Positions 2,988 through 54,307 of a DNA stretch of 64,000 nucleotides are shown here, piece by piece. The position numbers and the translations under genes are program-made. The notes below the pieces were generated by a model. That model searched no databases and was not told the origin of the DNA. It saw only the letters and a program-made list of their open reading frames with translations. This DNA comes from Dehalococcoidia bacterium (lineage in GTDB: Bacteria; Chloroflexota; Dehalococcoidia; GIF9; AB-539-J10): NCBI GenBank assembly GCA_030610855.1, contig JAUWQY010000001.1, forward strand, positions 1,628 through 65,627. Direction: 5' to 3'. Each line of letters begins with the position of its first letter. Position 1 is the stretch's first letter.

Positions 2988-3338
2988 CTAGCTTCCACTC
3001 TGAGGCTCATCTCCCGGAACAGCCTCCTTCAGTCCTCTACCCTCGAATTCAGATTCTCTTGCTACCAGGAATATGGTGGCCAGCAGTCCAGGTAGGAACG
3101 GGATTGCAGTAGCGGAACAGAGAGCACCGGCTAGAGCTAGTCTAAACCGCCTCCTCCTGAATGTGAAGAAGGCTCCTACGAATGACATAATCATGAGAAC
3201 CAACGCCAGCACACTCAGTAATCCGATGAGAGCGATTGAGAGACCCCCGAAGACAAACATGACCGCAACTGCCAGGCTTGCGCCGATCATGGCTCCCAAT
3301 CCGCCAATTATCATGAGGATACCTGCTGCTGTTCTCAT
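2988..3338 (-). CDS. hypothetical membrane protein
   Basis: 116-aa ORF with three long hydrophobic helices. The overlapping plus-strand ORF is low-complexity. Confidence 0.4.
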   Translation of the reverse strand: MRTAAGILMIIGGLGAMIGASLAVAVMFVFGGLSIALIGLLSVLALVLMIMSFVGAFFTFRRRRFRLALAGALCSATAIPFLPGLLATIFLVARESEFEGRGLKEAVPGDEPQSGS

Positions 3339-8250: not shown

Positions 8251-8424
8251 GAATTATCACCTCCTGTCGCTGAGTTACTTCAGTATGCCATGCAGACAAG
8301 CGTTTCTGCAATAGTTATGGTCTCCCCCGCTATCAGGGCGGTTTTTCCAGATTCTATCGGGAAAAACTTGAACATGGCTGTGCCTCCGGGTAAAATAGCA
8401 GGTACCATGATTGGCTTGGAGCAC

Positions 8425-29824: not shown

Positions 29825-32272
29825 ATGAAAAAGAGGATATTTTCTGTAATAAGCGTGGTCATGCTGATTGTCATGACCTTGCCAGCCACCAGCCCCCCAC
29901 CGGTGGTGGCACAGCCAAGTGGGTGGCCGACTATATGGACAGGGCTAGCCTCGGATGATAATGAGCACTGCGAGACGTTCCGCAACGTGGCGGATATGGA
30001 TGGCGATGGCTATGCGCTCTACTACGATGTGGATTCTCAGTATATATACCTGCGCATGGAGACTGTCACTGCACCGGGCTGGCCCTCTACAGGGTCGCAA
30101 GGCGCAGCTCGCTACAAGTGGTGGTTCAGTACCGCGGGGGCGGCTGCCTACGTCAGCGGGACCAGCGTGTACAATGCGGAATTTCTGCTGATACTGGAGG
30201 ACAGGACGGATACAAGCAACGTTGACGGCAGCAGGGATCAACTGGGCGAACTGACCCTCATGGACGACCTGGCAAATATCGGATTTGCAAAACGATGGAA
30301 TAAGGGGGACTCTGGGGCTTACCTCACCGGTACTCCTGACAACGGCGGTTCAAGTTCCCTTTGGAAGAGAGCAGTCGGAAATGGAACGGCTGGGACTGGA
30401 GGACCTCAGGGCGTGATGGGCGCGGATATCGGCTACCGAATTGACAACGGCTTCGTGGACATGTACGTAAGCCGGGCCGCGCTGGGAAACGCGTCCTCGT
30501 TATGCCTCATCTGGGCAACCGATAACCAGAACCCCAATCTGGACCAGGCTCCCAACTGCGACCGCCCAACGGGAGCAAATTGCATCATGCTGGGGGAGGA
30601 CTTCGGCGACGCACCTGCTCCCTACCCCACGCTGATGGCGAATGACGGAGCCCGCCATGCTGTGGGCGACATCTATCTCGGTGCCACTATTGACGCGGAA
30701 TTGGATGGCCAACCAAATTCAACTGCCACGGGCGACGACAACAGTGATCTCGATGATGAGGACGGCGTTGTTTTCACGACGGCATTGGTAAAGAGCCAAT
30801 CGGCCGACGTGACCGTGACTGCGTCGGATGCCGGGTATCTGGATGCCTGGGTGGACTTTAACGACGATGGCGACTGGGCAGATGGTGATGAGCAAATCTT
30901 CGCCGGCCGATCACTCAGTGCGGGAGCCAATTATCTGAACTTCTCAGTGCCTGTGTCGGCAACACAGACCGACCAGGCATTTGCTCGCTTTCGCTTCAGC
31001 AGCGCTGGTGGCTTGTCTTACGATGGGCCTGCTGCTGATGGTGAGGTAGAGGACTACCAGGTGGCAGTTGAGGATCGCCTTATCCTCACCATCACCGCGG
31101 ACAGCGACAGCAAGGTCTACGACGGGACACCCCTGACCAACAGTGGCTACAGCATAACAGCTGGAGCACTGGCAGCAGGCCACTCCCTTGACTCGGTGGT
31201 CGTTACCGGCTCCCAGACAGATGTCGGGAGCAGTGACAATGTGCCGAGCGATGCCGTGATCATGGACAACGGCACCAACGTGACAGCCAAACATGACATC
31301 ACCTACGTTAACGGCACGCTGACAGTCACCCGTAGGCCGCCCCCACCCCCTCGTGGCGGCGGTGGTGGTTGCCCTGTTGGATGTGCCAGATACTTCACGG
31401 TGGACTGGGACGAGAAGATCACCCGTACCTGCCTGCCCGACAATGACCGGCTGGCAGAAGACATGCTCTGTCCTGACCCCGATGGCAAACACAACCTGTT
31501 CCTGGAGCAGGGGACTCTCGCACCTGAAGTCGATGGAGAGCGGCATTACCTGATAATAATCAGAGAGCTTGAAGAAGAAGACACGCCTCCTGTTCCAGAC
31601 AATACTATGGCAGTTGCGGCCTTCAACATAACTCCTGCGGGCGCTGTCTTCGAAGAGGAGATCATCCTGACACTGGGCATCGATCTACTGCCCGACGATG
31701 CCGTGGATGCAGACATATTCTATTACGATGAAGCTCATGGAGTCTGGGTACCGCTGGACGGTGACCCAGTCGATCCAAACGGTGTGGCAGAACTGAGCCT
31801 CTCTGCAGGCGTAAACCACTTCACCGTGTTTGCCGTACTGGTCGACCTCGCTCCGCCGGCTCCTCCCGCCAGTTTTGTGGCCAGTGACTTGAGCATTGAG
31901 CTCAGCGTGGAAAAGATATGGAGCGCTATCACTTTCGTGACCAAGACAGGAGAGAACGTTACCATTACCGCTAAGGTAGAAAACGACGGTGGGCAGGCAG
32001 GCACCTACACTGTTGAGCTCAAGATAAATGGAGAGATAGTGGATAGCGAGACGGTGACACTGGACGCGGGACAAAGCCAGTATGTGAGTTTTGACCGGTC
32101 CGACATGGGTTACGGGCAGTATGAGGTAGAGGTCGCCGGATTGAGCGATACGTTCACAACCTTCCGAACCATCACCTGGTGGCTTATCATCATCCTAATA
32201 GCCGCGATTGGCCTCATTACCTGGGGAGCGGTGTGGGCTAGAAGAAGGCGCAGAGCAAGACAACAGGCATGA
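29825..32272 (+). CDS. large cell-surface protein: signal peptide, GEVED domain, MBG-like domain, Pro/Gly linker, CARDB domain, C-terminal TM anchor
   Basis: Signal peptide MKKRIFSVISVVMLIVMTLPA. DFGDAPAPYPT...ARH...DGQPNSTATGDDNSDLDDEDGV...ADGEVEDYQVAV is GEVED-domain-like. KVYDGTPL...ITYVNGTLTVT is MBG-like. GENVTITAKVENDGGQAGTYTVELKINGEIV is CARDB-like. Terminal hydrophobic helix plus RRRRRAR. Confidence 0.85.
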   Translation: MKKRIFSVISVVMLIVMTLPATSPPPVVAQPSGWPTIWTGLASDDNEHCETFRNVADMDGDGYALYYDVDSQYIYLRMETVTAPGWPSTGSQGAARYKWWFSTAGAAAYVSGTSVYNAEFLLILEDRTDTSNVDGSRDQLGELTLMDDLANIGFAKRWNKGDSGAYLTGTPDNGGSSSLWKRAVGNGTAGTGGPQGVMGADIGYRIDNGFVDMYVSRAALGNASSLCLIWATDNQNPNLDQAPNCDRPTGANCIMLGEDFGDAPAPYPTLMANDGARHAVGDIYLGATIDAELDGQPNSTATGDDNSDLDDEDGVVFTTALVKSQSADVTVTASDAGYLDAWVDFNDDGDWADGDEQIFAGRSLSAGANYLNFSVPVSATQTDQAFARFRFSSAGGLSYDGPAADGEVEDYQVAVEDRLILTITADSDSKVYDGTPLTNSGYSITAGALAAGHSLDSVVVTGSQTDVGSSDNVPSDAVIMDNGTNVTAKHDITYVNGTLTVTRRPPPPPRGGGGGCPVGCARYFTVDWDEKITRTCLPDNDRLAEDMLCPDPDGKHNLFLEQGTLAPEVDGERHYLIIIRELEEEDTPPVPDNTMAVAAFNITPAGAVFEEEIILTLGIDLLPDDAVDADIFYYDEAHGVWVPLDGDPVDPNGVAELSLSAGVNHFTVFAVLVDLAPPAPPASFVASDLSIELSVEKIWSAITFVTKTGENVTITAKVENDGGQAGTYTVELKINGEIVDSETVTLDAGQSQYVSFDRSDMGYGQYEVEVAGLSDTFTTFRTITWWLIIILIAAIGLITWGAVWARRRRRARQQA

Positions 32273-44158: not shown

Positions 44159-44776
44159 CTACGCCCGCTTTCGACGCCGCTGTCCTTTCCTCAACAATGA
44201 GTAAATTCCCTCTACTTGCCGTCTTGTCTCGTCCAGCGAACCATCATTATCAATGACGAAGTCGGCCGACCTGGTTTTTTCCTCAAGAGGAAGCTGGGAT
44301 CTCATCCTGTTCCGGGCATCGTCCCGGCTTAGTCCTTTTTCCTCTAATCGTCTTAACTGGGTCTGTTCACTGGCAGAAACAACGATCGTCTTATCCACAG
44401 ATATAGGGAGAGCGGCTTCATGCAGTAACGGAATGTCCTTGACAATAAGAGCATCGGGATCAAGGCTGTTGATCTCCTCTGTAATCCTCTCGTCCTCCTT
44501 AACCACCTCCGGATGAACAATCTGATTTAGCCTGGCCACCTTTTCCTTGTTGGAGAATACTATATCGGCCAGCTTTTGGCGATTGAGGGCCAGGTCTTCG
44601 TTTAGGAAATCGTTTCCGAAACACTCTACTATTTCTTTCCAGGCCTTTGAGTGAGGACGGACCACCTGCCGGGCCAACTCATCCCAATCAATTATGTAAG
44701 CCCCCAGTTGTTTGAAAAGACCGGCTACCGTGCTTTTGCCAGTGCCTATACTTCCTGTAAGACCGACAATAATCAT
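44159..44776 (-). CDS. coaE: dephospho-CoA kinase
   Basis: GLTGSIGTGKST P-loop. Confidence 0.9.
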   Translation of the reverse strand: MIIVGLTGSIGTGKSTVAGLFKQLGAYIIDWDELARQVVRPHSKAWKEIVECFGNDFLNEDLALNRQKLADIVFSNKEKVARLNQIVHPEVVKEDERITEEINSLDPDALIVKDIPLLHEAALPISVDKTIVVSASEQTQLRRLEEKGLSRDDARNRMRSQLPLEEKTRSADFVIDNDGSLDETRRQVEGIYSLLRKGQRRRKRA

Positions 44777-45495
44777 CAGTTCGCCCCTTGTGCGTCACCT
44801 CTCTTAGCTAACAACCTTCCATAGTAAGGAGATTTCGACAAATACAGGGCGGCCAAAGGATTGTGCCCTGTAACTCTGTCTTTTACCGCCAGCACTGTCA
44901 TGGGGACGCGACAGTATTTGATAAACAAGGTGTCGTGTCCGATGCAGAGTCCCAACATTATAGCCAGATCAACTTGCTCACTGTTGAGGACCTCTGCCTG
45001 AACGATGGGATTGCACAGGGATTCCCAGGTTTCAGGCCCCACAATATGCTGCTCAGGCTTGATGCCGACTCTCTGCTTAGGCGTAGCACCCGATTTGCAG
45101 CAAACAGAGACAACTTCAAATCCCTTGCTTTCCAGAACATCAGTGAGCATCTGAGCTTCTTTTCTCAGACCGAGGCAGAAAGCCATGCCCAATCTCTTGT
45201 AGCCACACTTAGAGGCAAACTGAGTTAGCTCTTCGATACGGGGGATCTTGGTTCTCATCCCCTCCTCCGTCCGTTCATAGCATTCAAACTCCTGTATCGA
45301 GGCCAGGCGCGCGAATTCCTTGACTGCCGGCTTGTCATATTCAGAGACAGCTCTATCGACAAGCTCGGGGAACAATCTCATGGGGCAGAAGGAAGGCGCT
45401 TCATCCAAGGTAGGTGCCTCATCAATCCCTATAGCAGGGCTACACACCACCTTGGCACATTTGGCACACATGGGATGTAGTGCGTCAGTCATCAT
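44776..45495 (-). CDS. Cys-rich hypothetical protein (possibly DUF1847-type metal-binding)
   Basis: 239-aa ORF with MCAKCAK N-terminus and several Cys pairs. Family assignment is from memory only. Confidence 0.6.
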   Translation of the reverse strand: MMTDALHPMCAKCAKVVCSPAIGIDEAPTLDEAPSFCPMRLFPELVDRAVSEYDKPAVKEFARLASIQEFECYERTEEGMRTKIPRIEELTQFASKCGYKRLGMAFCLGLRKEAQMLTDVLESKGFEVVSVCCKSGATPKQRVGIKPEQHIVGPETWESLCNPIVQAEVLNSEQVDLAIMLGLCIGHDTLFIKYCRVPMTVLAVKDRVTGHNPLAALYLSKSPYYGRLLAKRGDAQGAN

Positions 45496-45582: not shown

Positions 45583-45852
45583 TTATCGCCGAGCGCGCCA
45601 ACAACCATTTGGGTGGCCGCCTTTTGCGAGAAGGGTTCGGGCGCGCGAGCCCATGCCGCTAGCTATGACAACGCAAGCGCCTTGTTCAGTCAACCAGGCG
45701 GGAAGAAACCCGGGTCGATGTCCTGGCGACGGCATGACCTCCTTCCTCACGATCGCGGTAGTAACCTCATCAACGTCAGACAGGGAGAAATAGCTGTGAT
45801 GGCCACAGTCGGCAGCCATCTTCTGTTCTGCTATAGGCGCCGCCAATCTCAT
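45583..45852 (-). CDS. NifX/NifB-like (dinitrogenase FeMo-cofactor-binding fold) small protein
   Basis: MRLAAPIAE...GHHSYFSL.DVDE...VIASGMGSRARTLL matches the Nitro_FeMo-Co domain pattern. AGGAGGG RBS. Confidence 0.65.
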   Translation of the reverse strand: MRLAAPIAEQKMAADCGHHSYFSLSDVDEVTTAIVRKEVMPSPGHRPGFLPAWLTEQGACVVIASGMGSRARTLLAKGGHPNGCWRARR

Positions 45853-46093
45853 TTCCTATCCCTCCTGCAAGTGTCTTCTGAGGAGCAAGGAGGCATCTCA
45901 CAGCGTTCCGTCTTGCCACAACAGGTCGTGCCTGGTACAGAGCACTGGTCTTTAAGGCATGGGTAGCTGAGAGCAGCCTCTCTAGCTTGTCACTGCCACA
46001 CACCGGACATTGTACACCCTGGCTGTTAAGGGTGCGGAGAAACATCTCCGGAAGGCTCCCGCATTCCAAGCATTTGTACTCATAAATTGGCAT
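45776..46093 (-). CDS. FmdB-family zinc-ribbon protein
   Basis: MPIYEYKCLECGSLPE...CPVCGSDKLERLLSA is a CxxC...CxxC zinc ribbon. AGGAGGT RBS. Internal start at 46093 chosen. Its 3' end overlaps the next gene. Confidence 0.6.
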   Translation of the reverse strand: MPIYEYKCLECGSLPEMFLRTLNSQGVQCPVCGSDKLERLLSATHALKTSALYQARPVVARRNAVRCLLAPQKTLAGGIGNEIGGAYSRTEDGCRLWPSQLFLPV

Positions 46094-46205
46094 CTCTACC
46101 TCCTGGGTTTCTGGTTTTGCTGAAATGACCAGCCATAGCTGTTCTGTACATGAAATGCCTGGCTTTCCCATATTGCCAGGCAAGGTTCCTCCATCGCTTG
46201 CAGTA

Positions 46206-46985
46206 TCAAACAAGATAGCCTTTAGGACCAGGACGGCGACGCAATGTCTCCACAAGATCAAGCGGCCTGACTTCACGTCTTGGCGCTTCATATACAGTAA
46301 CTACATTCCGAAGATTGCTGAACTTGGCTCGAATGCTAGCTACATTTTCGGGCGGCAGTGGTTTCACCTTCGATGGGCGCAGGGGTGTGTTTATCTGCAC
46401 CTCGTCGGGCGAAATGCTACGGGCAAGCTCCGCTACCTTTTCGGCATAACCCTCATTAGTCTGCATAAACATTACCTGAAGGGCCAGTTTGCCCTGGTAT
46501 GCGCCCCTGAATCGCCTCATGCCATCCAATATGAGGTCAAAACGCAAGCCCGAGGCCGGCCTGTTGACTAAGGAAAAGAGCTCGTCGTTTGGTACATCCA
46601 GCTTGGCCACTACCACGTCAGCCCGGGCGAGGCGCTCCCTTACATCTTCGCGGAACATGAGAGAACCATTCGTGAGCACTGCTGTCGGCAAATCCAAAAT
46701 CGACCTTGCAAGCTCAATCGCCTCACCCAGGTTACTGGCCAGGGAGGGCTCACCCATGCCAGAGAAAGTGGCGTAGTCAGCATCTATCGGCCTAAGGGAC
46801 TCGATTTCACTGGTCAGTTGGTCCAAGCTGATGAATTCCTCTGGCTCGACGACAAAACGGGTGGTCTCACCTAACTGGCAATAGACGCAGTTGAAGGTAC
46901 AGATTTTCCTCTTGGCATTGAGAAGGTCTATACCCAGTGATCTGCCCAACCTCCATGAAGCAACAGGCCCGTAAACAAGTGCCAT
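46206..46985 (-). CDS. radical SAM domain protein
   Basis: CTFNCVYCQ CxxxCxxC motif and GMGEP motif. 259 aa. Subfamily not assignable by eye. Confidence 0.8.
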   Translation of the reverse strand: MALVYGPVASWRLGRSLGIDLLNAKRKICTFNCVYCQLGETTRFVVEPEEFISLDQLTSEIESLRPIDADYATFSGMGEPSLASNLGEAIELARSILDLPTAVLTNGSLMFREDVRERLARADVVVAKLDVPNDELFSLVNRPASGLRFDLILDGMRRFRGAYQGKLALQVMFMQTNEGYAEKVAELARSISPDEVQINTPLRPSKVKPLPPENVASIRAKFSNLRNVVTVYEAPRREVRPLDLVETLRRRPGPKGYLV

Positions 46986-47223
46986 TTCAGTATTTAACCT
47001 TCATACTTGATTTAACGTCCGTCAATGTGCCCCGGAATCCAGTGCCACCGTTGATGCCGGCCATCCTTGCCCGGTTCATCAAGGCCGGCATCTCGGGGAG
47101 CATGCTTGATATGGGCCAAACCATAACCTCTCGATCTGCAATTCGCCGACGAGCCTTTCAGTAGTCTTACGTCAACGCGATGTGCCGCCTATAGAAACAA
47201 CGGGAGGCATTTTCCCGTCCTCC

Positions 47224-47673
47224 TTAGTGCTTACGGTATGCTCTCTTCCAGGGCTCTCGTTTCGTTGCGATGTAGTCTCTTATGGCTGCTTGGAGCGTAT
47301 TCGCCGCCAGCAGAGCGCAATGCTCACTTTCGTCAGGCAGTCCGCCCAGGGCGTCCAGCACATCACGCTGCGTCATTTTCTGAGCTTCGCTGATGCTCTT
47401 GCCCTTGGCTATCTCTGTGACCATGCTGCCAGAGGCAATGCTGCTACCGCAGCCATCGGTCATAAAGGTGGCATCGACAATGGCATCATTGTTGACCTTG
47501 AGCCATATTTCCATTGTGTCACCGCAGGGGCCTGTCACTCTTGCGAATGCGCCGGCGTTCTGCATAACACCCACGTTCCTCGGGGCCATGGCATGGTCGA
47601 TTACTGCTTCAGAGTAGATCCTGCGGGCATCCGCCAAAATCAACTCCTGGAGTTCCTGAGAGTCAGCAGACAT
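47224..47673 (-). CDS. iscU: Fe-S cluster assembly scaffold, NifU/IscU N-terminal-domain type
   Basis: Three conserved Cys motifs: GPCGD, DGCGSSIASGS and EHCALLAA. Confidence 0.85.
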   Translation of the reverse strand: MSADSQELQELILADARRIYSEAVIDHAMAPRNVGVMQNAGAFARVTGPCGDTMEIWLKVNNDAIVDATFMTDGCGSSIASGSMVTEIAKGKSISEAQKMTQRDVLDALGGLPDESEHCALLAANTLQAAIRDYIATKREPWKRAYRKH

Positions 47674-47688
47674 TCTTTTGCCTCCTGT

Positions 47689-48693
47689 TCATCTGCCACC
47701 AGCCGACACCACCTGGACCAGAGCTTCGCCCAGCCTGGTCACGATTTCATCGTCATAGCGTTCGATTTTACCCTCATCACAGAGTTTGGCTAGCTTGGGG
47801 TCTATGGGTAGCTGACCCAAGAACGGGGCATTGACGGCACGGGCTGTCTCTTCTCCCCGGCTCCGGCCAAAGACCTCAATCCTCTTATCTATCTCGGGTA
47901 CATACAGGTAACTCATATTCTCGACCACACCCAGAACGCGCTTCTCCATTTTCCGGACCATGTTCACCGCCTTGCGCACAATCATCTGAACCAGGTCCTG
48001 AGGGGTGAAAACGACGATTACCCCCGAAATCGGAAAGGACTGCATTAGTGTGAGCGGTGCGTCGGCAGTTCCCGGCGGCAGGTCAACAATTAGATAATCA
48101 AGCTTGCCCCAGAGCACGTCTTCACCAAACTGCTTGATGGTATTCCCAATTAGAGGGCCGCGCCAGATAATGGCATCATCCTCACTGGGTAGGAGAAGAT
48201 TGATAGACATGACTTCAATCCCTGACCCCGATAGTACCGGCAGAATTCCACCTTCGTTGCCACTGGGCCGAGCGCTGAGTCCGAACATCCTAGGTATGCT
48301 CGGGCCGGTAATATCAGCATCCAAAATGCCTACCTCATAGCCCTTACGCTTCAGGGCGATGGCGAGCAGACCTGATACCAGGGATTTGCCTACGCCTCCT
48401 TTACCGCTCATCACGGCAACAATGTGATCTATTTCGTTAAGGTCCTTTGCCTTGGCATCAGTATATTCAACATTCGCATCATTGACATCGGGCAGCTTCT
48501 CAATGACTTCCTTCGCCTTGGTCTTGATCCAGTCCTGTGCGTCTGGAATCAACCCCGTTGATGCCAGGGTGACGTTTACTTTCTCACCGGAAGCGGTGAC
48601 CTCACGCACCAGGTTCATCGCGACGATGCTGCGGTTGATACTAGGCACCAGTACTGCTTCCAGGCTCTCCCTTACTTGTTCTTCACTCGCCAC
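47689..48693 (-). CDS. apbC: Mrp/NBP35/ApbC-family Fe-S cluster carrier ATPase with N-terminal DUF59/MIP18 domain
   Basis: GKGGVGKS Walker A and CxxC. N-terminal MIP18-like segment. Confidence 0.9.
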   Translation of the reverse strand: MASEEQVRESLEAVLVPSINRSIVAMNLVREVTASGEKVNVTLASTGLIPDAQDWIKTKAKEVIEKLPDVNDANVEYTDAKAKDLNEIDHIVAVMSGKGGVGKSLVSGLLAIALKRKGYEVGILDADITGPSIPRMFGLSARPSGNEGGILPVLSGSGIEVMSINLLLPSEDDAIIWRGPLIGNTIKQFGEDVLWGKLDYLIVDLPPGTADAPLTLMQSFPISGVIVVFTPQDLVQMIVRKAVNMVRKMEKRVLGVVENMSYLYVPEIDKRIEVFGRSRGEETARAVNAPFLGQLPIDPKLAKLCDEGKIERYDDEIVTRLGEALVQVVSAGGR

Positions 48694-48716
48694 AAGTTTC
48701 CCTCCATTTCCATCTA

Positions 48717-49055
48717 TCAGTGGTCACAGATGTTACCCTCTGTAGCTAGTTGGCCGTTGAGATAACTCAGAACCGCCTTCTCTGGGTCACTTTCCACAGT
48801 GCCGACAACGACCCCGATGCAGTGCTGCTGGAAAAGGCTCTGCGCCCGGGATCCCATGCCACCGGCAATCACAAAGGCAACGCCTTGTTCTGCCAGCCAC
48901 TCCGGAAGAAGCCCCGGCTGGTGGCCCGGCGACGGTATAAGCTCTTTCCTGATTATTTCCCTCTTATTTTCATCAACATCGATCAGTGCGAAATATTCAC
49001 AATGACCAAAGTGCGGCGATACTATCCCGCCGTTTACCGGTATCGCATACCTCAT
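48717..49055 (-). CDS. NifX/NifB-like protein
   Basis: MRYAIPVNGGIVSPHFGHCEYFALIDVD...VIAGGMGSRAQ matches the family pattern. GGAGG RBS 5 nt before the ATG at 49055. Confidence 0.8.
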   Translation of the reverse strand: MRYAIPVNGGIVSPHFGHCEYFALIDVDENKREIIRKELIPSPGHQPGLLPEWLAEQGVAFVIAGGMGSRAQSLFQQHCIGVVVGTVESDPEKAVLSYLNGQLATEGNICDH

Positions 49056-49091
49056 AGTAACCTCCATCTATTGTTTTTTATTTTTGGTCCC

Positions 49092-49328
49092 TTAGTGCCG
49101 CCGGCAGGTGTCCCCGGTAGAGCAGGGCGGTGCGTTACAACGCTCGGTCTGGCCACAGCAGGTAGTGCCAGGAGCCTGACTACTCGTTCTGATTACATAG
49201 GATGAGGAAATGAGTCTCTCCAACTTTGCACTGCCACAATCAGGGCAGCGCGGGGCCTGCTCAGTACCTCGGACGAACACCTCTGATACCTTGCCGCATT
49301 CGAGACATCTGAAGTCGTGAATTGGCAT
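49092..49328 (-). CDS. FmdB-family zinc-ribbon protein with extra C-terminal Cys cluster
   Basis: MPIHDFRCLECG...CPDCGS, then a CCGQTERCNAPPCSTGDTC tail. Confidence 0.7.
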   Translation of the reverse strand: MPIHDFRCLECGKVSEVFVRGTEQAPRCPDCGSAKLERLISSSYVIRTSSQAPGTTCCGQTERCNAPPCSTGDTCRRH

Positions 49329-49377
49329 CTTTTGTACTAACTCCCTTCCAAACTCGTTTTACGTGAGATAGCCTGCC

Positions 49378-49572
49378 TCATAAACCGACGCTTCGGGTCG
49401 GACTGCTCAGCATACAAGAGCTGCCGGAAGTGGCAACGAAGGCTGAGAAAACACGGCGAGAGCTCTCTGTCCCGCACCTGGGATATTCTACTTCCCCGTC
49501 GCTATTGCTCATACTCCGTCGCAGGTCAAAACGTTCACCACATTTAAGACACTCGTATTCATAGATTGCCAC
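49378..49572 (-). CDS. FmdB-family zinc-ribbon protein
   Basis: MAIYEYECLKCGERFD...YPRCG. Confidence 0.65.
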   Translation of the reverse strand: MAIYEYECLKCGERFDLRRSMSNSDGEVEYPRCGTESSRRVFSAFVATSGSSCMLSSPTRSVGL

Positions 49573-49578
49573 GGTGTG

Positions 49579-50454
49579 TCACCCCTTGCTACCGTTCGTT
49601 AACCTTATCGAGAGTGTATGCCACATTCTTTGTATCTCCCGAGTGACGTTACCATTAGTGTATTCCACTACTGGCACTCCTTGAACAATTGACTCAGTAA
49701 CAACATTATCAAAAGGAATCCTCCCTGCTATCTCAACTCCCTGGCTAAGGCATTGGCTCTCAATTTGCCGTGTGTTCTCCTCGTTCAAGTCATGCTTGTT
49801 GATGCAGACCATGGCAGGAACCCCGAAGTGGCGGCAGAGGCCAAGCACTCTCTCCAAATCGTGCATCCCAGAAAGGGTCGGCTCGGTAACCAGAAGGGCT
49901 AACGCTGCCCCAGAGAGAGATGAAATGACGGGGCAGCCGATGCCGGGCGGGCCATCACTAATAATATAATCGAAACCCTGCTCTTCAGCAATCTGTTTAG
50001 CCTGCTGCCTGACTACTGCCACCAGTTTCCCTGAGTTCTCTTGAGCTATTCCCAGTCGGGCATGAACAAGAGGGCCATACTTGGTATCGGAAATGAACCA
50101 GTATCCGGCCATATTGTCCCTCATTGTTATAGCTTCAGTTGGGCACACATGTGAACAGAAGCCGCAGCCTTCACAGGATACTGCGTCAACCCGGAAATCC
50201 TTGATAGCGTTGAAGCGGCACAGCTCCTGGCACAGGCCACACTCATTGCACCCGCTTTCATCTATGTGAGCTACCTGCCCACTCCAGAACTCGTTTCTTG
50301 CCTTCTCCGAAGGGCTGAGTAGCAAATGAAGGTCTGCCGCGTCAACATCACAGTCGGCAAGCACCTTTCTTTCCGCCAGAGCCGCCAGCGAGCCGACGAT
50401 GATGGTCTTCCCGGTGCCCCCTTTACCGCTTAGTACTACGACTTCTTTCATCAA
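49579..50454 (-). CDS. MinD/ParA-superfamily P-loop ATPase with inserted 2x[4Fe-4S] ferredoxin domain
   Basis: GKGGTGKT deviant Walker A. CNECGLCQELC and CEGCGFCSHVCP ferredoxin motifs inserted mid-protein. Confidence 0.85.
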   Translation of the reverse strand: MMKEVVVLSGKGGTGKTIIVGSLAALAERKVLADCDVDAADLHLLLSPSEKARNEFWSGQVAHIDESGCNECGLCQELCRFNAIKDFRVDAVSCEGCGFCSHVCPTEAITMRDNMAGYWFISDTKYGPLVHARLGIAQENSGKLVAVVRQQAKQIAEEQGFDYIISDGPPGIGCPVISSLSGAALALLVTEPTLSGMHDLERVLGLCRHFGVPAMVCINKHDLNEENTRQIESQCLSQGVEIAGRIPFDNVVTESIVQGVPVVEYTNGNVTREIQRMWHTLSIRLTNGSKG

Positions 50455-51289
50455 CTATCTCCGCGACCTTATCAAAGAGCTGAAGGAAGATGCTCTTCCA
50501 CTGCGGCATGCCATCGACCAAAGTTATACCACGTGAGTAGAGGCGGGCGATCTCCATATCCAAAGGAATGGTAAGCAGGATAGGTATGTTCTCTTTCTCA
50601 CAGTACTCTTCCACTTTGCTATCACCTACACCGGCACGGTTGAGCACAACGCCGCATGGGACGCCGAGTTCTCTCACCGTTTCGACGGCAAGGGCCAGGT
50701 CATTCAGCCCAAATGGAGTTGGCTCAGTTACCAGAATACAGAAATCGCTCCCCTTGATTGCCTCTACTACCGGACAGGATGTGCCCGGCGGAACATCTAT
50801 GATGACTGTATCATCGTTATTGGCATACTCCTTCACTTTTCTGATAATCGGTGGCGCCATTGCCTCACCCACCGTGAGTTTGCCATGGACAAAGCCCACA
50901 GCATCCGCGTGTCCCCACTCAACAACTCCTGTCTCGCGGCTCTCCTCAGTGATAACCTTCTCTGGGCAGAGGTAACAGCAGGCACCGCACCCGTGACAGA
51001 GCTGAGGGAAGGTCAGCACGTGCTTGCCCAGTACGGCAATGGCATGATAGGCACACACCTCAGCACACTTGCCACAGTAGGTGCACTTCTCTTCGTCTAC
51101 GTTGGGAACCGAAATTGATACGGCTTTGCTACCGGTGATTTCGGGTTTCAGAAACACGTGGTCGTTTGGCTCCTCCACATCACAGTCGAGCAGTTTAACC
51201 TTATAGTCACCGCTCAGCGAAAGAGCCAGGCTAGTAGCGACCAGCGTCTTTCCTGTGCCACCCTTCCCACTGGCAACAGATATTATCAT
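50423..51289 (-). CDS. MinD/ParA-superfamily P-loop ATPase with inserted ferredoxin domain (paralog)
   Basis: GKGGTGKT. CTYCGKCAEVC and CHGCGACCYLCP. Overlaps the downstream paralog by 32 nt. Confidence 0.85.
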   Translation of the reverse strand: MIISVASGKGGTGKTLVATSLALSLSGDYKVKLLDCDVEEPNDHVFLKPEITGSKAVSISVPNVDEEKCTYCGKCAEVCAYHAIAVLGKHVLTFPQLCHGCGACCYLCPEKVITEESRETGVVEWGHADAVGFVHGKLTVGEAMAPPIIRKVKEYANNDDTVIIDVPPGTSCPVVEAIKGSDFCILVTEPTPFGLNDLALAVETVRELGVPCGVVLNRAGVGDSKVEEYCEKENIPILLTIPLDMEIARLYSRGITLVDGMPQWKSIFLQLFDKVAEIVDERSRSTKR

Positions 51290-51290
51290 T

Positions 51291-51509
51291 CTATTCCCGA
51301 ATCATCTTGGCACCACACTTGGGGCACGTTAAATCGTAGCAGGGAATACCTACCTCGTGAGGGATATTTGCACCACAACTCGGGCAAACACAGCTGCCAC
51401 TAGGGCCTGCCCCAGGTCGGTTTCCACCCATCCTTCCCATACCCCGGCCACGTCCTGATCCTCTTCCCGGCCCCTGCCCATAAGGTCCCGTGCCATCTCC
51501 TCTAGGCAT
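51291..51509 (-). CDS. DUF5320-type Gly-rich N-terminus fused to a CxxC...CxxC zinc ribbon
   Basis: MPRGDGTGPYGQGPGRGSGRGRGMGRMG then CVCPSCG...CPKCGAKM. Confidence 0.65.
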   Translation of the reverse strand: MPRGDGTGPYGQGPGRGSGRGRGMGRMGGNRPGAGPSGSCVCPSCGANIPHEVGIPCYDLTCPKCGAKMIRE

Positions 51510-51512
51510 AAA

Positions 51513-51710
51513 TCACCTCGCTGTTTTTCTCTTCCCTTCTAGTGATGTATCCGACTCTGCGCTCAACTCAGTAATGAAGTAGGGATAGTCATCAGTGCGG
51601 TTCTCCTTTCCACACTGAAAGCAAGTTTGTATTATCTTCTTAACTTCCTCCTCTGTTACTTCCTTGCCCCCGTATTCCAGGTAACCATAACTCCTCCCTT
51701 CCGAATTCAA
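51513..51710 (-). CDS. questionable small ORF (TTG start, single CxxC)
   Basis: Fills an otherwise empty 200-nt slot in a tightly packed operon, but lacks an ATG or SD. Contains CFQCG. Confidence 0.25.
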   Translation of the reverse strand: MNSEGRSYGYLEYGGKEVTEEEVKKIIQTCFQCGKENRTDDYPYFITELSAESDTSLEGKRKTAR

Positions 51711-51717
51711 GCTTTGC

Positions 51718-51942
51718 TTACTCTATACCTGGCAACCCGCAGACTCCAGAGCTGCAAGTGGGGCAACTCATATCTGCATCTTCGGTTCCACTTGAGCTAT
51801 GGCTAAAAAATGAGGAAATGAGCCTCCTCGGATTTGGAGCGTTACATTCAGGGCAGTTTATACCAGAAATACCTTCGCCAACGCTTTGGCGAACCTCGAA
51901 TCTCTGCCCACATTGGTTACATTGATACTCATAAATAGGCAT
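51718..51942 (-). CDS. FmdB-family zinc-ribbon protein with C-terminal Cys-rich tail
   Basis: MPIYEYQCNQCGQRFE...CPECNA, then a CPTCSSGVCG tail. Confidence 0.7.
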   Translation of the reverse strand: MPIYEYQCNQCGQRFEVRQSVGEGISGINCPECNAPNPRRLISSFFSHSSSGTEDADMSCPTCSSGVCGLPGIE

Positions 51943-51945
51943 GTT

Positions 51946-52503
51946 TTAGCTCTCCTTCCCCAACTCTGCGATGCGACGTTGAATCTCACTTAGCTGCTGC
52001 GCCATCATCTGAGTCTGAGATTTGAGCGCCTCTATCTCTTCCTCGGGGCTCATTGCTTGGGGCGCTGCCTGAGGTATTATTCCTGGCCCCATGCCTCTGC
52101 CCATTCCCATTCCTCGACCCATACCCATACCCATGCCGCGACCCATGCCAGAATGAGAGCCTACGTTTGGTTGGGTGCTTGGTTGTAGCCTACCTGTATT
52201 ATAGGCTTCAACAGCATCCTTTATCCTGCCTGAAACACCGGTGATTACTTGGATCCCCGCTGCCGAAAGGGTCTGGTAAGCGTTGGGCCCACAATTACCC
52301 GTGAGCACGAACTCCACGCCTTTGCCGGCAATCATCTGGGCAGTGCTGATGCCTGCCCCACCGGCAGCCATGGCGCTCGAATTCTCCAAAGTCTCAAACT
52401 CCATGCTCTGGGGGTCAACGATGATGAAGTATTGACACCTTCCAAAACGAGGATCTACGTCAGCATCCAAACCAGGAGCTGTTGCCGATACCGCAATTCT
52501 CAT
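51946..52503 (-). CDS. NifX/NifB-like domain fused to a DUF5320-type Gly/Met/Arg repeat and coiled coil
   Basis: N-terminus MRIAVSATAPGLDADVDPRFGRCQYFIIVD...VLTGNCG is NifX-like. Then (GMGR)n repeats and a SPEEEIEALKSQTQMMAQQLSEIQRRIAELGK coiled coil. Confidence 0.8.
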   Translation of the reverse strand: MRIAVSATAPGLDADVDPRFGRCQYFIIVDPQSMEFETLENSSAMAAGGAGISTAQMIAGKGVEFVLTGNCGPNAYQTLSAAGIQVITGVSGRIKDAVEAYNTGRLQPSTQPNVGSHSGMGRGMGMGMGRGMGMGRGMGPGIIPQAAPQAMSPEEEIEALKSQTQMMAQQLSEIQRRIAELGKES

Positions 52504-52521
52504 GATGCACCTCTTTCTAGT

Positions 52522-52839
52522 TTACTCCGTCTCCAGTTCTTTTATTCTAGCATCTATTTGCTCCAACTGTCCCTTTACTGCTTCTGCCTGGTCCCTCAGG
52601 AAATCCAGCTCCTGCTCCCGAGTCATCTGAGGAGCGTAGGGGTAGGCTCCTGGCGCTGCTCCCATAGGTGCCCCCGCATAACTATATGGCGCAGGACCTG
52701 CATAAGGCATGCCCCTTCCAAACCCATATCCCCTGCCGAAACCATACCTGCGCCCTGTACCCCAAGGGCTGCAAAAACCTCTCCCTCCTCCCGTCATTGG
52801 TCCCATTCCCCGTGGTCCCGTTCCATCAAACCCTGGCAT
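52522..52839 (-). CDS. DUF5320-family protein (Gly-rich N-terminus, coiled-coil C-terminus)
   Basis: MPGFDGTGPRGMGPMTGGGRGFC...REQELDFLRDQAEAVKGQLEQIDARIKELE. Confidence 0.75.
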   Translation of the reverse strand: MPGFDGTGPRGMGPMTGGGRGFCSPWGTGRRYGFGRGYGFGRGMPYAGPAPYSYAGAPMGAAPGAYPYAPQMTREQELDFLRDQAEAVKGQLEQIDARIKELETE

Positions 52840-52900
52840 AATTCACCTCCTTGTCAATTTGAGTATTGTGTACGCAAATCTCATTTCTTTACTAAATTCT

Positions 52901-53104
52901 CTACTTACGAAGCTCCTCCAGCCTCTTCTTCACTTCGTCTAGCTCGCTCTCGAGCAATCTCTCCTCGTCTTCAAGCATGGCAACTCTTCCTCTCTGGACA
53001 TAGCTCCCCAGGGGGTAACCATATCCATATCCTCCATAGGGATACCTGTAGGGGATTCTATACTGCCAACCCCAAGGGTGCCGAGATCCGAACCAACGCC
53101 ACAT
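52901..53104 (-). CDS. DUF5320 C-terminal coiled-coil fragment (second half of a split or frameshifted gene)
   Basis: Tyr/Gly-rich WQYRIPYRYPYGGYGYGYP followed by EDEERLLESELDEVKKRLEELRK. Frame is -1 relative to the N-terminal fragment. Confidence 0.4.
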   Translation of the reverse strand: MWRWFGSRHPWGWQYRIPYRYPYGGYGYGYPLGSYVQRGRVAMLEDEERLLESELDEVKKRLEELRK

Positions 53105-53133
53105 TTTCTCATCTGCTCGAGAAATCCTAATAC

Positions 53134-53412
53134 TTACCACCAAGGGTATCCATAAGGTCCCCGTCTTCGCAAGCCACGACCCAAGCCACGACCCAAGCCA
53201 CGACCGAAGCCGCGACCGAAGCCACGGCCAAAGCCATAGCCCCACCTGGGCCGTACCGGTGCCGGGTAACCGTAACCATAAGCGTACGGATCACCAGGCA
53301 TTGGGTTGGCAAAGCCCGGCCTACCAAAGCCAGCGCAGAAACCAGCCGCCCTACCGGTCATCGGACCTGAGCCCATCGGTCCTGTTCTATCTCCAAATGG
53401 CATCTTTATCAC
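53134..53412 (-). CDS. DUF5320 N-terminal Gly/Arg-rich fragment (first half of a split or frameshifted gene)
   Basis: MPFGDRTGPMGSGPMTGRAAGFCAGFGRPG...(GFGRGLGR)n. Stops at TAA 53134-53136 without a coiled coil. Confidence 0.6.
   Translation of the reverse strand: MIKMPFGDRTGPMGSGPMTGRAAGFCAGFGRPGFANPMPGDPYAYGYGYPAPVRPRWGYGFGRGFGRGFGRGLGRGLGRGLRRRGPYGYPWW
53171..53242 (-). repeat. six tandem 12-nt coding repeats (AAGCCACGACCC variants) encoding (GRGF/GRGL)n
   Basis: Direct tandem units are visible in the sequence. A similar CCCATNCC(G)CGA periodicity at about 52101-52150 encodes (GMGR)n. Confidence 0.6.
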
Positions 53413-53435
53413 CTCCTTTCTCTATTCATTGTTCA

Positions 53436-53906
53436 TCACGATCTGCCGCCGCGAAATCTCCTGCCACATCGTCGGCCCAAACCAAACGGGGGTAGAGGCG
53501 TGGGCTGTATATCCCCACTGAAGCATACGGGGCAGGACAAAGGCAGTCTCTGTGCCCTGGCCTCAAAAGACACATTCCACTCATGCCCGTCATTGCCGCA
53601 TCTAAAACGGCGCTGGGCAAGCTCGAAATTGCCTCCTTCGATTTGAATTGCCTTGCCATTGATCAGAGCGTCGGCCAGCTTTTGCCGGGCCGATTCCAAT
53701 ATACGATGAAAGGTCGGCCTGGAAATCCACATTCGCTGGGCACACGCTTCCTGTTCCAGTCCCTCCAAATCCTTGAGACGGATAGACTCAAGTTCCTCAA
53801 GCGAAAGACGAACACCCTGTAAAGCACTTACGGGAATACCCACCGGTCTGAAGGAGTCTATGCTCGGCAGCTGGGCAACGCATCGCAACTTCGTTGGCCT
53901 GGCCAT
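53436..53906 (-). CDS. DUF134-family predicted DNA-binding protein with C-terminal Cys/His zinc-ribbon-like extension
   Basis: MARPTKLRCV...RLSLEELESIRLKDLEGLEQEACAQRMWISRPTFHRIL is DUF134 (sigma region-4-like HTH). AAAGGAGG RBS. First gene of the co-directional array. Confidence 0.8.
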   Translation of the reverse strand: MARPTKLRCVAQLPSIDSFRPVGIPVSALQGVRLSLEELESIRLKDLEGLEQEACAQRMWISRPTFHRILESARQKLADALINGKAIQIEGGNFELAQRRFRCGNDGHEWNVSFEARAQRLPLSCPVCFSGDIQPTPLPPFGLGRRCGRRFRGGRS

Positions 53907-54025
53907 CAGAAATCAACCTCCTTTTCGCTACGAATTATGAACATATGTCAATAATAATGATAATGGATCCTGTCGAAGTTGTCAAGTTTTGACCATAGCC
54001 ATGGCGTGGTGATACAAATGGAGAT

Positions 54026-54307
54026 ATGAATTGTGTTGAGCTTTTCCCCAGTCTCGACCACTGTATCGAGAGTACGGCCAGGGAGGAATTCTGGAACTCA
54101 GTGAACGGATATTCGGAAGGCGGGCGTGAGGACAAGGAATTGGAGGAGAGGATTGAACTCCTCAAGGCTTTCCTGGAATCGGCGGACTTTGGAAAGCTCC
54201 GCAGCCAAAGCGAGAAGCACTTGATAGAAGGCAAGAAGATCAAGTTTGTGATTTGCCAGCAAGAGGGCGGGCTGGATTATCGGATGATGGTAATCGAGGG
54301 CGTTTAG
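54026..54307 (+). CDS. hypothetical 93-aa protein
   Basis: ATG with GGAG 5 nt upstream, in an otherwise empty 500-nt gap. No recognised domain. Confidence 0.3.
   Translation: MNCVELFPSLDHCIESTAREEFWNSVNGYSEGGREDKELEERIELLKAFLESADFGKLRSQSEKHLIEGKKIKFVICQQEGGLDYRMMVIEGV

Follow-up and report, generated by a model that had tools for sequence, protein, structure and literature searches.

Two described systems come close to the gene cluster reported here. The first is the orange protein (ORP) complex of Desulfovibrio vulgaris, in which Orp3 and Orp4 belong to the MinD-like proteins and each contain two [4Fe-4S] ferredoxin motifs, Orp8 is the NifX-like 'orange protein' with a Mo-Cu-S cluster, and Orp9 (MrpORP) joins an Mrp P-loop domain to a NifX-like Di-Nase domain; the complex also includes a small Cys-rich [2Fe-2S] protein, and the orp genes were described as anaerobe-specific (PMC6345978, PMC8359166, PMC3897727, PMC4672049). 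In vitro, MrpORP hands iron-sulfur (Fe-S) clusters to Orp3/Orp4 (PMC6345978). The second is IssA (SipA, PF2025) of Pyrococcus furiosus, which consists of a NifX-like IPR003731 domain and a cationic tail of 70 residues in which Gly, Arg and aromatic residues abound; Fe and sulfide are stored as thioferrate in large particles, and IssA can rebuild the ferredoxin cluster in vitro (PMC5524996). The subject of this report is a minus-strand gene cluster in a stretch of 64,000 nucleotides (nt) from a Dehalococcoidia bacterium (contig JAUWQY010000001.1), called the window throughout. This is very probably an ORP-type cluster. It is a Dehalococcoidia variant of the known ORP system, with IssA-like parts, and no new kind of system. 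What is new here is a predicted operator, a bridge between ORP and IssA via DUF5320 proteins and GRG tails, an Mrp protein without CXXC, and gene fusions that predict interactions.

An earlier reading of the window, made from the sequence only, held that these protein families had no assigned function. That claim falls with the purification of the ORP complex from Desulfovibrio and with the thioferrate store IssA, a NifX-like protein that ends in a Gly/Arg tail. Literature searches on DUF5320, DUF134, COG1149/1342/1433 and the inserted ferredoxin domain found no description of the neighbourhood other than the papers on ORP and IssA.

The array is co-directional and tightly packed, running from 53906 down to 45513 behind a strong sigma-70-type promoter. 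In order from the DUF134 gene, with lengths in amino acids (aa), it comprises the following open reading frames (ORFs) and one hairpin:

53436..53906, minus strand: DUF134/UPF0251 helix-turn-helix protein, 156 aa; Pfam PF02001 85.1 bits (gathering score 27)
53134..53403, minus strand: DUF5320A, 89 aa; Pfam PF17253 48.8 bits over profile positions 1-55 (cut-off 27)
52901..53104, minus strand: DUF5320B, 67 aa, with an aromatic-rich segment and the family's C-terminal amphipathic helix; Pfam 24.7 bits over profile positions 38-99, just under 27
52522..52839, minus strand: DUF5320C, 105 aa, full-length member; Pfam DUF5320 80.1 bits over profile positions 1-99
51946..52503, minus strand: NifX-DUF5320 fusion, 185 aa, made of a NifX domain of the orange-protein/MTH1175/IssA subtype, a GMGRG repeat and the DUF5320 C-terminal helix; Nitro_FeMo-Co 86.1 bits, DUF5320 44.8 bits
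51718..51942, minus strand: FmdB zinc ribbon 1 (FmdB1), 74 aa, with extra C-terminal cysteines; Zn_ribbon_8 60.8 bits
51513..51710, minus strand: 65-aa ORF with a TTG start; a doubtful gene, possibly mere spacer
51291..51509, minus strand: 72-aa protein with the DUF5320 N-terminal GRG motif and a CxxC..CxxC zinc ribbon; the window copy gives only weak zinc-ribbon matches
50423..51289, minus strand: MinD-like ATPase 1, 288 aa, with an inserted 2x[4Fe-4S] ferredoxin domain, Orp3/Orp4 type; ParA, CbiA and Fer4 matches
49579..50451, minus strand: MinD-ferredoxin ATPase 2, 290 aa, 29% identical to ATPase 1; CbiA/ParA and Fer4 matches
49378..49572, minus strand: FmdB zinc ribbon 2 (FmdB2), 64 aa; Zn_ribbon_8 46.6 bits
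49092..49328, minus strand: FmdB zinc ribbon 3 (FmdB3), 78 aa, with the Cys-rich tail TTCCGxTERCxxPPCSxxxTCRR; Zn_ribbon_8 50.8 bits
48717..49055, minus strand: NifX2, 112 aa, of the MrpORP 'Di-Nase' subtype; Nitro_FeMo-Co 76.2 bits
47689..48693, minus strand: Mrp/NBP35-family ATPase, 334 aa, with an N-terminal FeS_assembly_P domain; ParA/NUBPL PF10609 297.8 bits
47224..47673, minus strand: IscU/NifU_N-type scaffold, 149 aa; NifU_N PF01592 121.8 bits (cut-off 22)
47199..47219, minus strand: terminator-like hairpin from a terminator scan, 3' of IscU, inside the spacer that follows it
46206..46985, minus strand: radical S-adenosylmethionine (SAM) enzyme, 259 aa, member of a family without a name that such clusters repeatedly contain; Radical_SAM 52.7 bits
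45849..46093, minus strand: FmdB zinc ribbon 4 (FmdB4), with a Cys-rich tail, frameshifted, intact form 81 aa; Zn_ribbon_8 43.9 bits
45513..45852, minus strand: NifX3, frameshifted, intact form 112 aa, motifs diverged; Nitro_FeMo-Co 32.4 bits

The sequence-only reading had called these families by eye, and profile hidden Markov models (HMMs) bear out every one that it named. Of the four or five FmdB ribbons it counted, four are recovered by Zn_ribbon_8 (43.9-60.8 bits), and its two ParA/MinD ATPases with an inserted ferredoxin domain are both confirmed, as is the head gene DUF134 with its strong Shine-Dalgarno sequence (AAGGAGG). Other counts need a qualification: three of the four DUF5320 proteins exceed the cut-off of 27 bits (48.8, 80.1 and 44.8) and the fourth, at 24.7, stays just below it, and the three NifX-like paralogues are all matched (86.1, 76.2 and 32.4 bits), the third being frameshifted in the window. 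The array is indeed tight, with intergenic gaps mostly between -32 and 61 nt, but gaps of 238 nt (IscU to radical SAM) and 112 nt (radical SAM to FmdB4) depart from the 0-50 nt that had been claimed. The bounds of 45583-53906 were too narrow, as the cluster extends to an AF_2379 gene upstream and to DUF1847 and CoaE genes downstream.

With the ORP system of D. vulgaris Hildenborough the window shares two paralogous MinD-like ATPases with two [4Fe-4S] motifs each, an orange-protein-type NifX, an Mrp P-loop protein together with a Di-Nase NifX carrying HFGHCE and CDH, small Cys-rich proteins, and restriction to anaerobes. The differences are as clear. Unlike Orp8, the window copy of the orange-protein-type NifX is extended by a DUF5320 tail, and the halves of MrpORP, which the NF041136 profile (cut-off 450) treats as one protein, are here separate genes in reversed order and without CXXC. 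The window has a single co-directional array with a sigma-70-type promoter and DUF134, whereas in Desulfovibrio the genes form two divergent operons that depend on sigma-54, OrpR and IHF. Neither the window cluster nor its immediate neighbours encode an AAA+ enhancer-binding protein. Finally, the window adds free DUF5320 proteins, FmdB ribbons, IscU, the radical SAM enzyme and DUF1847.

The two ATPase genes adjoin and overlap. Walker A and the eight ferredoxin cysteines (both CxxCxxCxxxC motifs) are invariant across 33 homologues. Nearly invariant, too, is a switch-II cysteine of ATPase 1, C172, which stands seven residues past the Walker B Asp (DxPPGxSCP) and has an equivalent, GCPV, in ATPase 2. 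Its position is presumably like that of Cys132, the switch-II cluster ligand of the nitrogenase Fe protein, and at the dimer interface C172 could contribute to binding of a metal or a cluster. The AlphaFold2 (AF2) model of ATPase 1 has a predicted local distance difference test (pLDDT) score of 96.3. Among solved structures it comes closest in fold to archaeal MinD, ATPase-type HypB, ApbC and Cfd1, and more distantly to the nitrogenase Fe protein; no solved structure combines the ATPase and ferredoxin architecture. Proteins of ~600 aa with two tandem MinD-ferredoxin copies came out on top of the representative search (e.g. P0121-P0155). By the Rosetta-stone argument, such tandem fusions suggest that the paralogues act as a heterodimer, and we regard the two window ATPases as probable heterodimer partners.

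To follow the neighbourhood across anaerobes, one genome per GTDB species was scanned with an alignment of diverse ATPase homologues, 80 loci were kept, and their six-frame ORFs were searched with HMMs built from the window proteins. Matches within 5 kb of the ATPase pair were set against matches 5-10 kb away as an internal control. The loci span Dehalococcoidia, Desulfobacterales, Syntrophobacterales, Omnitrophota, Planctomycetes, WOR-3, Ignavibacteria, Clostridia, Bathyarchaeia, Methanocellaceae, Methanothrix, Altiarchaeota and others. The species with a match on the same strand were distributed as follows:

Second full-length ATPase (tandem pair): 73/80 species
NifX-like, mean 2.1 copies: 73/80 species; 166 matches within 5 kb, 4 at 5-10 kb
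DUF5320: 50/80 species; 94 matches within 5 kb, 0 at 5-10 kb
Mrp (8 fused to NifX): 41/80 species; 41 matches within 5 kb, 2 at 5-10 kb
FmdB: 36/80 species; 44 matches within 5 kb, 3 at 5-10 kb
IscU: 32/80 species; 36 matches within 5 kb, 0 at 5-10 kb
Radical SAM family of the cluster: 18/80 species; 18 matches within 5 kb, 2 at 5-10 kb
DUF134: 17/80 species; 19 matches within 5 kb, 1 at 5-10 kb
DUF1847: 4/80 species; 4 matches within 5 kb, 0 at 5-10 kb

The arrangement is not confined to this genome: the neighbourhood recurs in 80 species and falls off past 5 kb. Both NifX subtypes (ORP/IssA and Di-Nase) occur together in 50 of the 73 NifX-bearing loci. Three kinds of fusion touch the question of an ORP complex, namely the tandem MinD-ferredoxin proteins, NifX fused to DUF5320 (21/80 loci) and Mrp fused to NifX (8 loci). 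In addition, a 197-aa ORF of a Clostridia locus (L036; the loci and related contigs are numbered with L) consists of NifX, a GRG-rich linker and a CxxC..CxxC ribbon of the type found in the window's 72-aa protein, a fusion that appears to link the window NifX-DUF5320 gene and the 72-aa protein functionally. Within Dehalococcoidia, the block from DUF134 through the NifX gene after the ATPases is constant. Mrp, IscU, radical SAM and DUF1847 vary, being absent between NifX and CoaE in L007 and placed beyond CoaE in L009; they are variable neighbours outside the fixed core.

The DUF5320 proteins and the NifX fusion provide the connection to IssA. DUF5320A, whose start codon and Shine-Dalgarno sequence were checked, begins with MPxGDxTGP..GPMTGR..C, continues with GFGRG/GLGRG repeats and ends in YPWW. 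DUF5320B has an orthologue in L009 that follows a strong Shine-Dalgarno sequence and scores 30 bits. The orthologues of the 72-aa protein in L007 and L009 match the DUF5320 profile over positions 1-39, at 28.6 and 26 bits. We considered whether 52901-53412 might be one DUF5320 gene with a frameshift, programmed or otherwise, and rejected this: the stop of DUF5320A (after ...YGYPWW) and the ATG of DUF5320B are conserved in L007/L009, relatives of 76-80% identity, so that DUF5320A and B are two genes and not one split gene. Within DUF5320A, near 53193, an in-frame 12-nt GRGF-repeat difference separates the window from the 99.3% identical L001, and the length of the tract varies within the population.

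In the NifX fusion, residues 2-113 find their best PDB match in 2WFB, the D. gigas orange protein (expect value (E) 1.2e-21), followed by 1RDU and 1EO1 (MTH1175). Nine Thermococcales IssA orthologues were recovered from metagenomes via a degenerate pattern built on the published cloning primer; the fusion's domain is ~31% identical to them (E 1e-20 to 1e-22) as against 29% to its own paralogue, and simple score-based typing groups it with IssA and ORP, away from the Di-Nase type. The resemblance extends to the tails, which we compared with DUF5320A:

Isoelectric point (pI): 11.3 in DUF5320A, 10.2-11.5 in IssA tails
Gly: 28% in DUF5320A, 20-27% in IssA tails
Arg: 14% in DUF5320A, 10-12% in IssA tails
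Aromatic residues: 18% in DUF5320A, 19-22% in IssA tails
GxGRG motifs: 5 in DUF5320A, 5-7 in IssA tails
Cys: 1 in DUF5320A, 1 in IssA tails
C-terminal end: PWW in DUF5320A, GWW in IssA tails

Only four ORFs in the six frames of the 64-kb window have at least two GxGRG motifs, and all four lie inside the cluster. Among the 80 loci, 30 encode a NifX protein with an H[FY]GMG..GMGRG tail, and this tail sits almost exclusively on the ORP/IssA subtype (30 vs 2). In Thermococcales, the IssA loci contain a further NifX gene, whose product has a GMGRG(RG) tail, and a gene for a DUF134 protein with an N-terminal GRG tail, starting MPxGMGxGWGRGRGRRRK; these neighbours of IssA are another feature in common with the window cluster. 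The likeness to IssA lies in a NifX-like IPR003731 domain followed by a Gly/Arg-rich tail; unlike IssA, the tails here are partly separate polypeptides and the host is a mesophilic bacterium. The published definitions ask of IssA a pI of 9 or more, under 5 Cys, and Gly making up 20% or more of the last 40 residues; for IssX the limits are a pI of 8 or more, under 10 Cys, and 10% Gly or more. The recovered IssA orthologues pass (pI 9.4-9.9, 1 Cys, 28-30% Gly). Filing the NifX fusion as IssA or IssX was ruled out on pI and Gly. When Palaeococcus is grown on S0, its most induced genes include SipA/IssA, an adjoining NifX-like gene, two adjoining 'CobQ with iron-sulfur cluster binding domain' genes and Mrp (PMC6981617); from their annotation, we infer that these 'CobQ' genes encode MinD-ferredoxin proteins. 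The IssA loci (L094 5620-6120; L095 755-1138, 4603-5154; L093 1736-3841, 6273-6728) also contain FeoB and a membrane protein starting MPRGMGRGYGRGG.

NifX2 and Mrp together correspond to MrpORP. NifX2 covers positions 264-365 of the NF041136 (MrpORP) profile at 118.7 bits, has TM1290 and PH0822 as best PDB matches, and carries HFGHCE and a C-terminal CDH, the motifs reported for the Di-Nase domain (PMC6345978). Mrp covers positions 1-245 of the same profile at 314 bits and matches ApbC at 209 bits, both under the cut-offs. It resembles the Mrp/NBP35/ApbC carriers in its deviant Walker A GKGGVGKS, its FeS_assembly_P (DUF59-type) domain and its strong ParA/NUBPL match, but unlike them it has no CXXC to ligate a bridging [4Fe-4S] cluster: where other phyla have VENMSGxxCPxCG the window has VENMSYLYVPEIDKRIEVFG, and the whole protein contains one cysteine. 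The description of this gene as an Mrp/ApbC carrier is therefore right as to family, while the cluster-binding motif of a carrier is absent. This is no peculiarity of the window. YVPEIDK replaces CPxCG in 13/13 Dehalococcoidia-type cluster-linked Mrp sequences (among them the window and L009, L011-L015, L018, L021, L022, L062, L077), whereas CPxCG is kept in 30/31 other cluster-linked Mrp sequences, L074 having a single Cys there. Because of this replacement the canonical bridging-cluster site is missing in Dehalococcoidia Mrp, which may be a nucleotide-dependent partner of the neighbouring NifX instead of a carrier itself.

IscU has its three ligand cysteines, Asp and His in place (CGD, GCGS and HC motifs), and scores 133.6 bits against the NCBIfam equivalog NifU_clost, under the cut-off of 187.9. 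The radical SAM protein has no PDB sequence match and only weak NCBIfam matches, to W-cofactor maturase and MoaA; the Dehalococcoidia version, window included, lacks a C-terminal winged helix. Cluster-linked radical SAM proteins share the signature YGPVPSRRLGRSLGIDL..C..C.YCQLGRTT, and those of other phyla add a C-terminal ArsR-like winged helix (L024, L026, L038, L040, L060, L070, L079, L090). The zinc ribbons were called with Zn_ribbon_8 (PF09723, cut-off 34.4 bits) and TIGR02605 (cut-off 31.3), the latter also matching at 64.5 (FmdB1) and 50.1 bits. The Cys-rich tail of FmdB3 is kept in L001 and L009.

Two elements upstream of DUF134 bear on regulation:

53957..53985, minus strand: sigma-70-type promoter, TTGACA-17 nt-TATCAT, correct at 11/12 positions and the best in a 13-kb scan
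53934..53955, no strand: 22-bp palindrome, operator candidate, consensus ATTATGGACATATGTCCATAAT, immediately following the -10 hexamer; 2 mismatches in the copy of the window

The promoter lies 50 nt upstream of DUF134, and both hexamers are kept upstream of DUF134 in L007, L009, L020, L021, L012, L019 and L022. The palindrome is single in the window, with 0 expected from 100 shuffles, and it precedes DUF134 in seven other Dehalococcoidia lineages, in perfect form in L019. It recurs at 3256 and 6075 of a Clostridia genome (L088), ahead of the first NifX gene and a DUF5320 gene, and at 9579 of a Desulfobacterales genome (L039), ahead of the first FmdB gene; by rough estimate, less than one chance match would be expected in the 1.28 Mb searched. 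The palindrome is a strong candidate for the DUF134 operator and points to a common regulon, and its occurrence in Clostridia, Desulfobacterales and Chloroflexota hints at a regulon that crosses phyla. A further copy stands at 8327 of another Chloroflexota genome (L017), ahead of an uncharacterised 250-aa ORF.

DUF134 itself gives a weak sigma-70 region 4 match and scores 64 bits against NF003257, under its cut-off. Its C-terminus consists of a Cys/His zinc-ribbon-like module (FRC..HEW..CPxC) and the cationic Gly/Arg tail GLGRRCGRRFRGGRS; module and tail are conserved in the alignment, and DUF134 proteins from other phyla have tails of a similar sort. AF2 models the helix-turn-helix (residues 36-83) with moderate confidence and leaves the tail disordered; with a pLDDT of 58.6 the model is too poor for a fold search. 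DUF134 is a candidate autoregulator of the cluster.

What might such a cluster do? We give about an even chance (roughly 50%) to the reading that it stores, mobilises and passes on inorganic Fe-S or other metal-sulfide material. Three properties established for homologues underlie it: NifX folds carry metal-sulfide species non-covalently, the tail of IssA goes with thioferrate, and MrpORP passes clusters to Orp3 and Orp4. The steps, all of them inferred for this organism, would be as follows. The orange-protein/IssA-type NifX domain (51946-52503) would hold a non-covalently bound metal-sulfide species. The cationic DUF5320 polypeptides, rich in Gly, Arg and aromatic residues, may play the part of the IssA tail by neutralising the anionic material and wrapping around it; some of these tails are separate proteins, acting in trans, and would be recruited via the shared C-terminal helix. 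The two MinD-like ATPases would form an ATP-dependent heterodimer, whose 2x[4Fe-4S] inserts could supply low-potential electrons for loading or for reductive release. Cys-rich FmdB ribbons, the Di-Nase-type NifX with the CXXC-less Mrp, and IscU would take the fragments and build or deliver clusters, with the linked radical SAM enzyme as client or modifier. DUF134 would repress its own promoter through the 22-bp palindrome, and may sense the same ligand via its Cys/His module and Gly/Arg tail.

This reading overlaps with the Fe-S or metallocluster trafficking outside N2 fixation that was proposed from the sequence alone. That proposal fits the conserved neighbourhood and the biochemistry of homologues, but the linkage to Mrp and IscU on which it leaned is variable. 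The accompanying statement that there is no nitrogenase is upheld, as no nifHDK, nifEN or nifB was found among the scanned window ORFs or in the annotated related contigs. The nitrogenase line of NifH, NifEN and NifX-NafY, as well as CooC and ATPase-type HypB, is alike in its logic, namely a dimeric Fe-S ATPase of the SIMIBI class with small NifX-fold carriers of metal-sulfide clusters bound non-covalently. This is analogy only, and in the window the Fe-S centres lie in an inserted ferredoxin domain and not at the dimer interface.

One may speculate further that the DUF5320 proteins are free-standing IssA tails which build thioferrate-like particles with the orange-protein-type NifX in mesophilic anaerobic bacteria and archaea, that the MinD-ferredoxin heterodimer is an ATP- and electron-driven loader and unloader, and that DUF134 senses the store via its Gly/Arg tail. 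We hold this more specific model to be tentative and on the whole unlikely. If true, it would merge the ORP and IssA literatures into one widespread Fe-S storage and delivery system.

Several observations speak against storage and delivery of Fe-S material, or against the IssA-like part of it. Because the window Mrp is without CXXC, transfer of the MrpORP type cannot work in the same way here. No cysteine desulfurase or iron transporter was found among the scanned window ORFs, and in the close relatives L007 and L009, Mrp, IscU and radical SAM are missing or displaced. At the level of profiles, IssA tails and DUF5320 show no homology, the tails giving no match to the DUF5320 profile even at E = 1; their likeness is compositional and could be convergent. 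With a pI of 5.2 and Gly at 2% over its last 40 residues, the NifX fusion (2 Cys), which is acidic overall and ends in an amphipathic helix, falls outside the definitions of IssA and IssX. When isolated, the orange protein has a Mo-Cu-S cluster bound, not Fe-S (PMC6345978), and the published view of ORP is one of cell division (PMC6345978, PMC8359166, PMC4672049).

A machine for cell division or positioning would have the MinD/ParA-like ATPases place the division site or the chromosome, with the Fe-S domains giving only redox sensitivity. In D. vulgaris, loss of OrpR leads to morphological defects, MrpORP is polar, and Orp3/Orp4 were reported with MinD-like C-terminal amphipathic helices (PMC6345978, PMC8359166, PMC4672049). 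Archaeal MinD proteins are also the closest solved folds of the ATPase, and the cluster lies near dnaA, gyrB and ftsK. However, the proximity to dnaA is lost outside close relatives, and the genes that recur beside the ATPase pair encode metal-cluster proteins (NifX-like, IscU, Mrp, Cys-rich ribbons, radical SAM), with no MinC/MinE, ParB or FtsZ-related genes among these partners. On the side of Fe-S handling we count that the modelled ATPase fold groups not with MinD alone but also with ATPase-type HypB, ApbC and Cfd1, which are metallochaperones. Together with the induction of Thermococcales homologues by sulfur and iron loading, the presence of IscU, Mrp, Cys-rich ribbons and radical SAM favours Fe-S handling over division, and we consider a division machine improbable. 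The same induction follows Fe and S, not Mo, a point that also counts against handling of molybdenum/tungsten (Mo/W) sulfide or another heterometal sulfide, in which the NifX-like proteins would carry clusters of the thiomolybdate/thiotungstate type and serve molybdo-/tungsto-enzymes or detoxify thiometallates. The orange protein does bind a [S2MoS2CuS2MoS2] cluster and is the best PDB match of the NifX fusion, and the authors of an Archaeoglobus study proposed a role in Mo cofactor (PMC3949148). The nearest named relatives of the radical SAM enzyme, though weak, are a tungsten-cofactor maturase and MoaA, but these matches are far under the cut-offs (31.6 vs 380 bits). IscU and Mrp point to Fe-S, and no molybdate/tungstate transporter or molybdopterin genes were seen in the cluster or the examined loci with HMMs that were not aimed at them. 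A Mo/W role also seems improbable to us.

It has further to be asked whether the Gly/Arg-rich proteins have anything to do with metal sulfides, since DUF5320 and the DUF134 tail could bind nucleic acids in the RGG manner or serve as scaffolds of condensates. In Methanosarcina mazei, a search by RG motif for proteins that bind G-quadruplexes caught one DUF134 and one DUF5320 protein (PMC7565180), and a cationic tail on a DNA-binding regulator could simply raise its affinity for DNA. Yet DUF5320 occurs beside NifX/MinD-ferredoxin genes only (94 matches within 5 kb, 0 beyond) and is fused to NifX domains in 21 loci, and IssA, the sole characterised protein with such a tail, uses it with thioferrate; nucleic-acid binding is very improbable as the explanation. 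Least credible is that the genes are packed housekeeping genes or a chance juxtaposition with no single system behind them. The second half of the array (Mrp, IscU, radical SAM, DUF1847, CoaE) does vary among close relatives, and a terminator-like hairpin divides the array. For the core, chance is already contradicted by a neighbourhood that is conserved across phyla and drops sharply beyond 5 kb, by multiple domain fusions, and by the same operator candidate ahead of different cluster genes in other phyla.

ORP-type clusters are widespread in strict anaerobes (Dehalococcoidia, Desulfobacterales, Planctomycetes, Omnitrophota, Clostridia, Bathyarchaeia, methanogens) and highly expressed in Archaeoglobus, and the cluster described here gives handles on ORP function and on how anaerobes living in sulfide build, store and deliver Fe-S. 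Dehalococcoidia rely heavily on Fe-S and corrinoid enzymes, and the system may therefore bear on organohalide respiration.

The two genes at the 3' end of the array were compared with six contigs from other metagenomes, which share 99.3-99.5% identity with the window. A single nucleotide near 45942 is missing from FmdB4 in the window only, and NifX3 has a 1-nt insertion near 45616 common to the window, L002 and L004. Both genes are intact in four of the six contigs (L001, L003, L005, L006); L004 has an intact FmdB4 beside the NifX3 insertion, and L002 adds a further 1-nt indel in FmdB4 to it. Since the NifX3 insertion is present in two independent assemblies, it is a real polymorphism, and sequencing error was ruled out as its cause; the deletion near 45942 could be error or mutation. 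Intact NifX3 (L001) is already without the HFGHC and CDH motifs that its paralogue keeps, and FmdB4 is 72% identical to the single FmdB of L009. These comparisons suggest that a duplicated FmdB4-NifX3 pair is decaying.

The 65-aa ORF at 51513-51710 has no Pfam or NCBIfam match and is seen solely in near-identical contigs, with no gene called at its position in L001-L006; it is doubtful because it lacks a family match and is absent from L007 and L009. At the hairpin after IscU the array is possibly split into two transcription units. The 238-nt spacer in which the hairpin lies folds no better than shuffled sequence (z = -0.08), and an Rfam scan of the whole window gave no match at or above a family's gathering score; on these two grounds we rejected a riboswitch or other structured RNA. 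The same spacer contains a 45-aa ORF (46987-47124, minus strand), called as a gene in related contigs, without a family match and of uncertain reality.

Beyond the array, two neighbours belong to its surroundings:

54026..54307, plus strand: small protein of the AF_2379 family, 93 aa, divergent from DUF134; a conserved neighbour
44776..45495, minus strand: DUF1847 protein, 239 aa, with 12 cysteines; DUF1847 181 bits; overlaps the CoaE start by 1 nt

PF27306 (AF_2379 family) is recorded for the counterpart genes in L001, L002, L007, L009 and L010. With our own HMM, the family is on the cluster strand in 6/80 loci, and on both strands taken together it has 8 matches, every one of them less than 5 kb from the ATPase pair. 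In Archaeoglobus, AF2378-AF2380 (NifX, AF2379 and a CbiA-type protein) are co-expressed (PMC3949148). Downstream, the array runs on unbroken on the same strand into DUF1847 and then CoaE; in the 4/80 loci that have it, DUF1847 lies each time within 5 kb of the ATPase pair, as an occasional cluster member.

The cluster had been called an island. As foreign DNA this is ruled out by uniform composition, the GC content of the cluster matching that of its flanks, and by the surrounding genes, which are housekeeping ones near dnaA and gyrB (RadA, IspD, IspF, fmt, DnaA, Obg, GyrB, FtsK, RNase J, RelA/SpoT, PurL, GlnA); it is a stable chromosomal locus. Its named homologues come from Dehalococcoidia or Chloroflexota, and the nearest species-level genome is an uncultured Dehalococcoidaceae with an ATPase 82% identical. 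Elsewhere in the window, 22349-25213 (minus strand) encodes a 954-aa FGAM synthase in which a PurS-like sequence is fused to the PurL N-terminus, and 29825-32272 (plus strand) encodes an 815-aa protein with GEVED and CARDB domains, probably secreted or at the surface, in the highest-GC stretch of the window (0.575).

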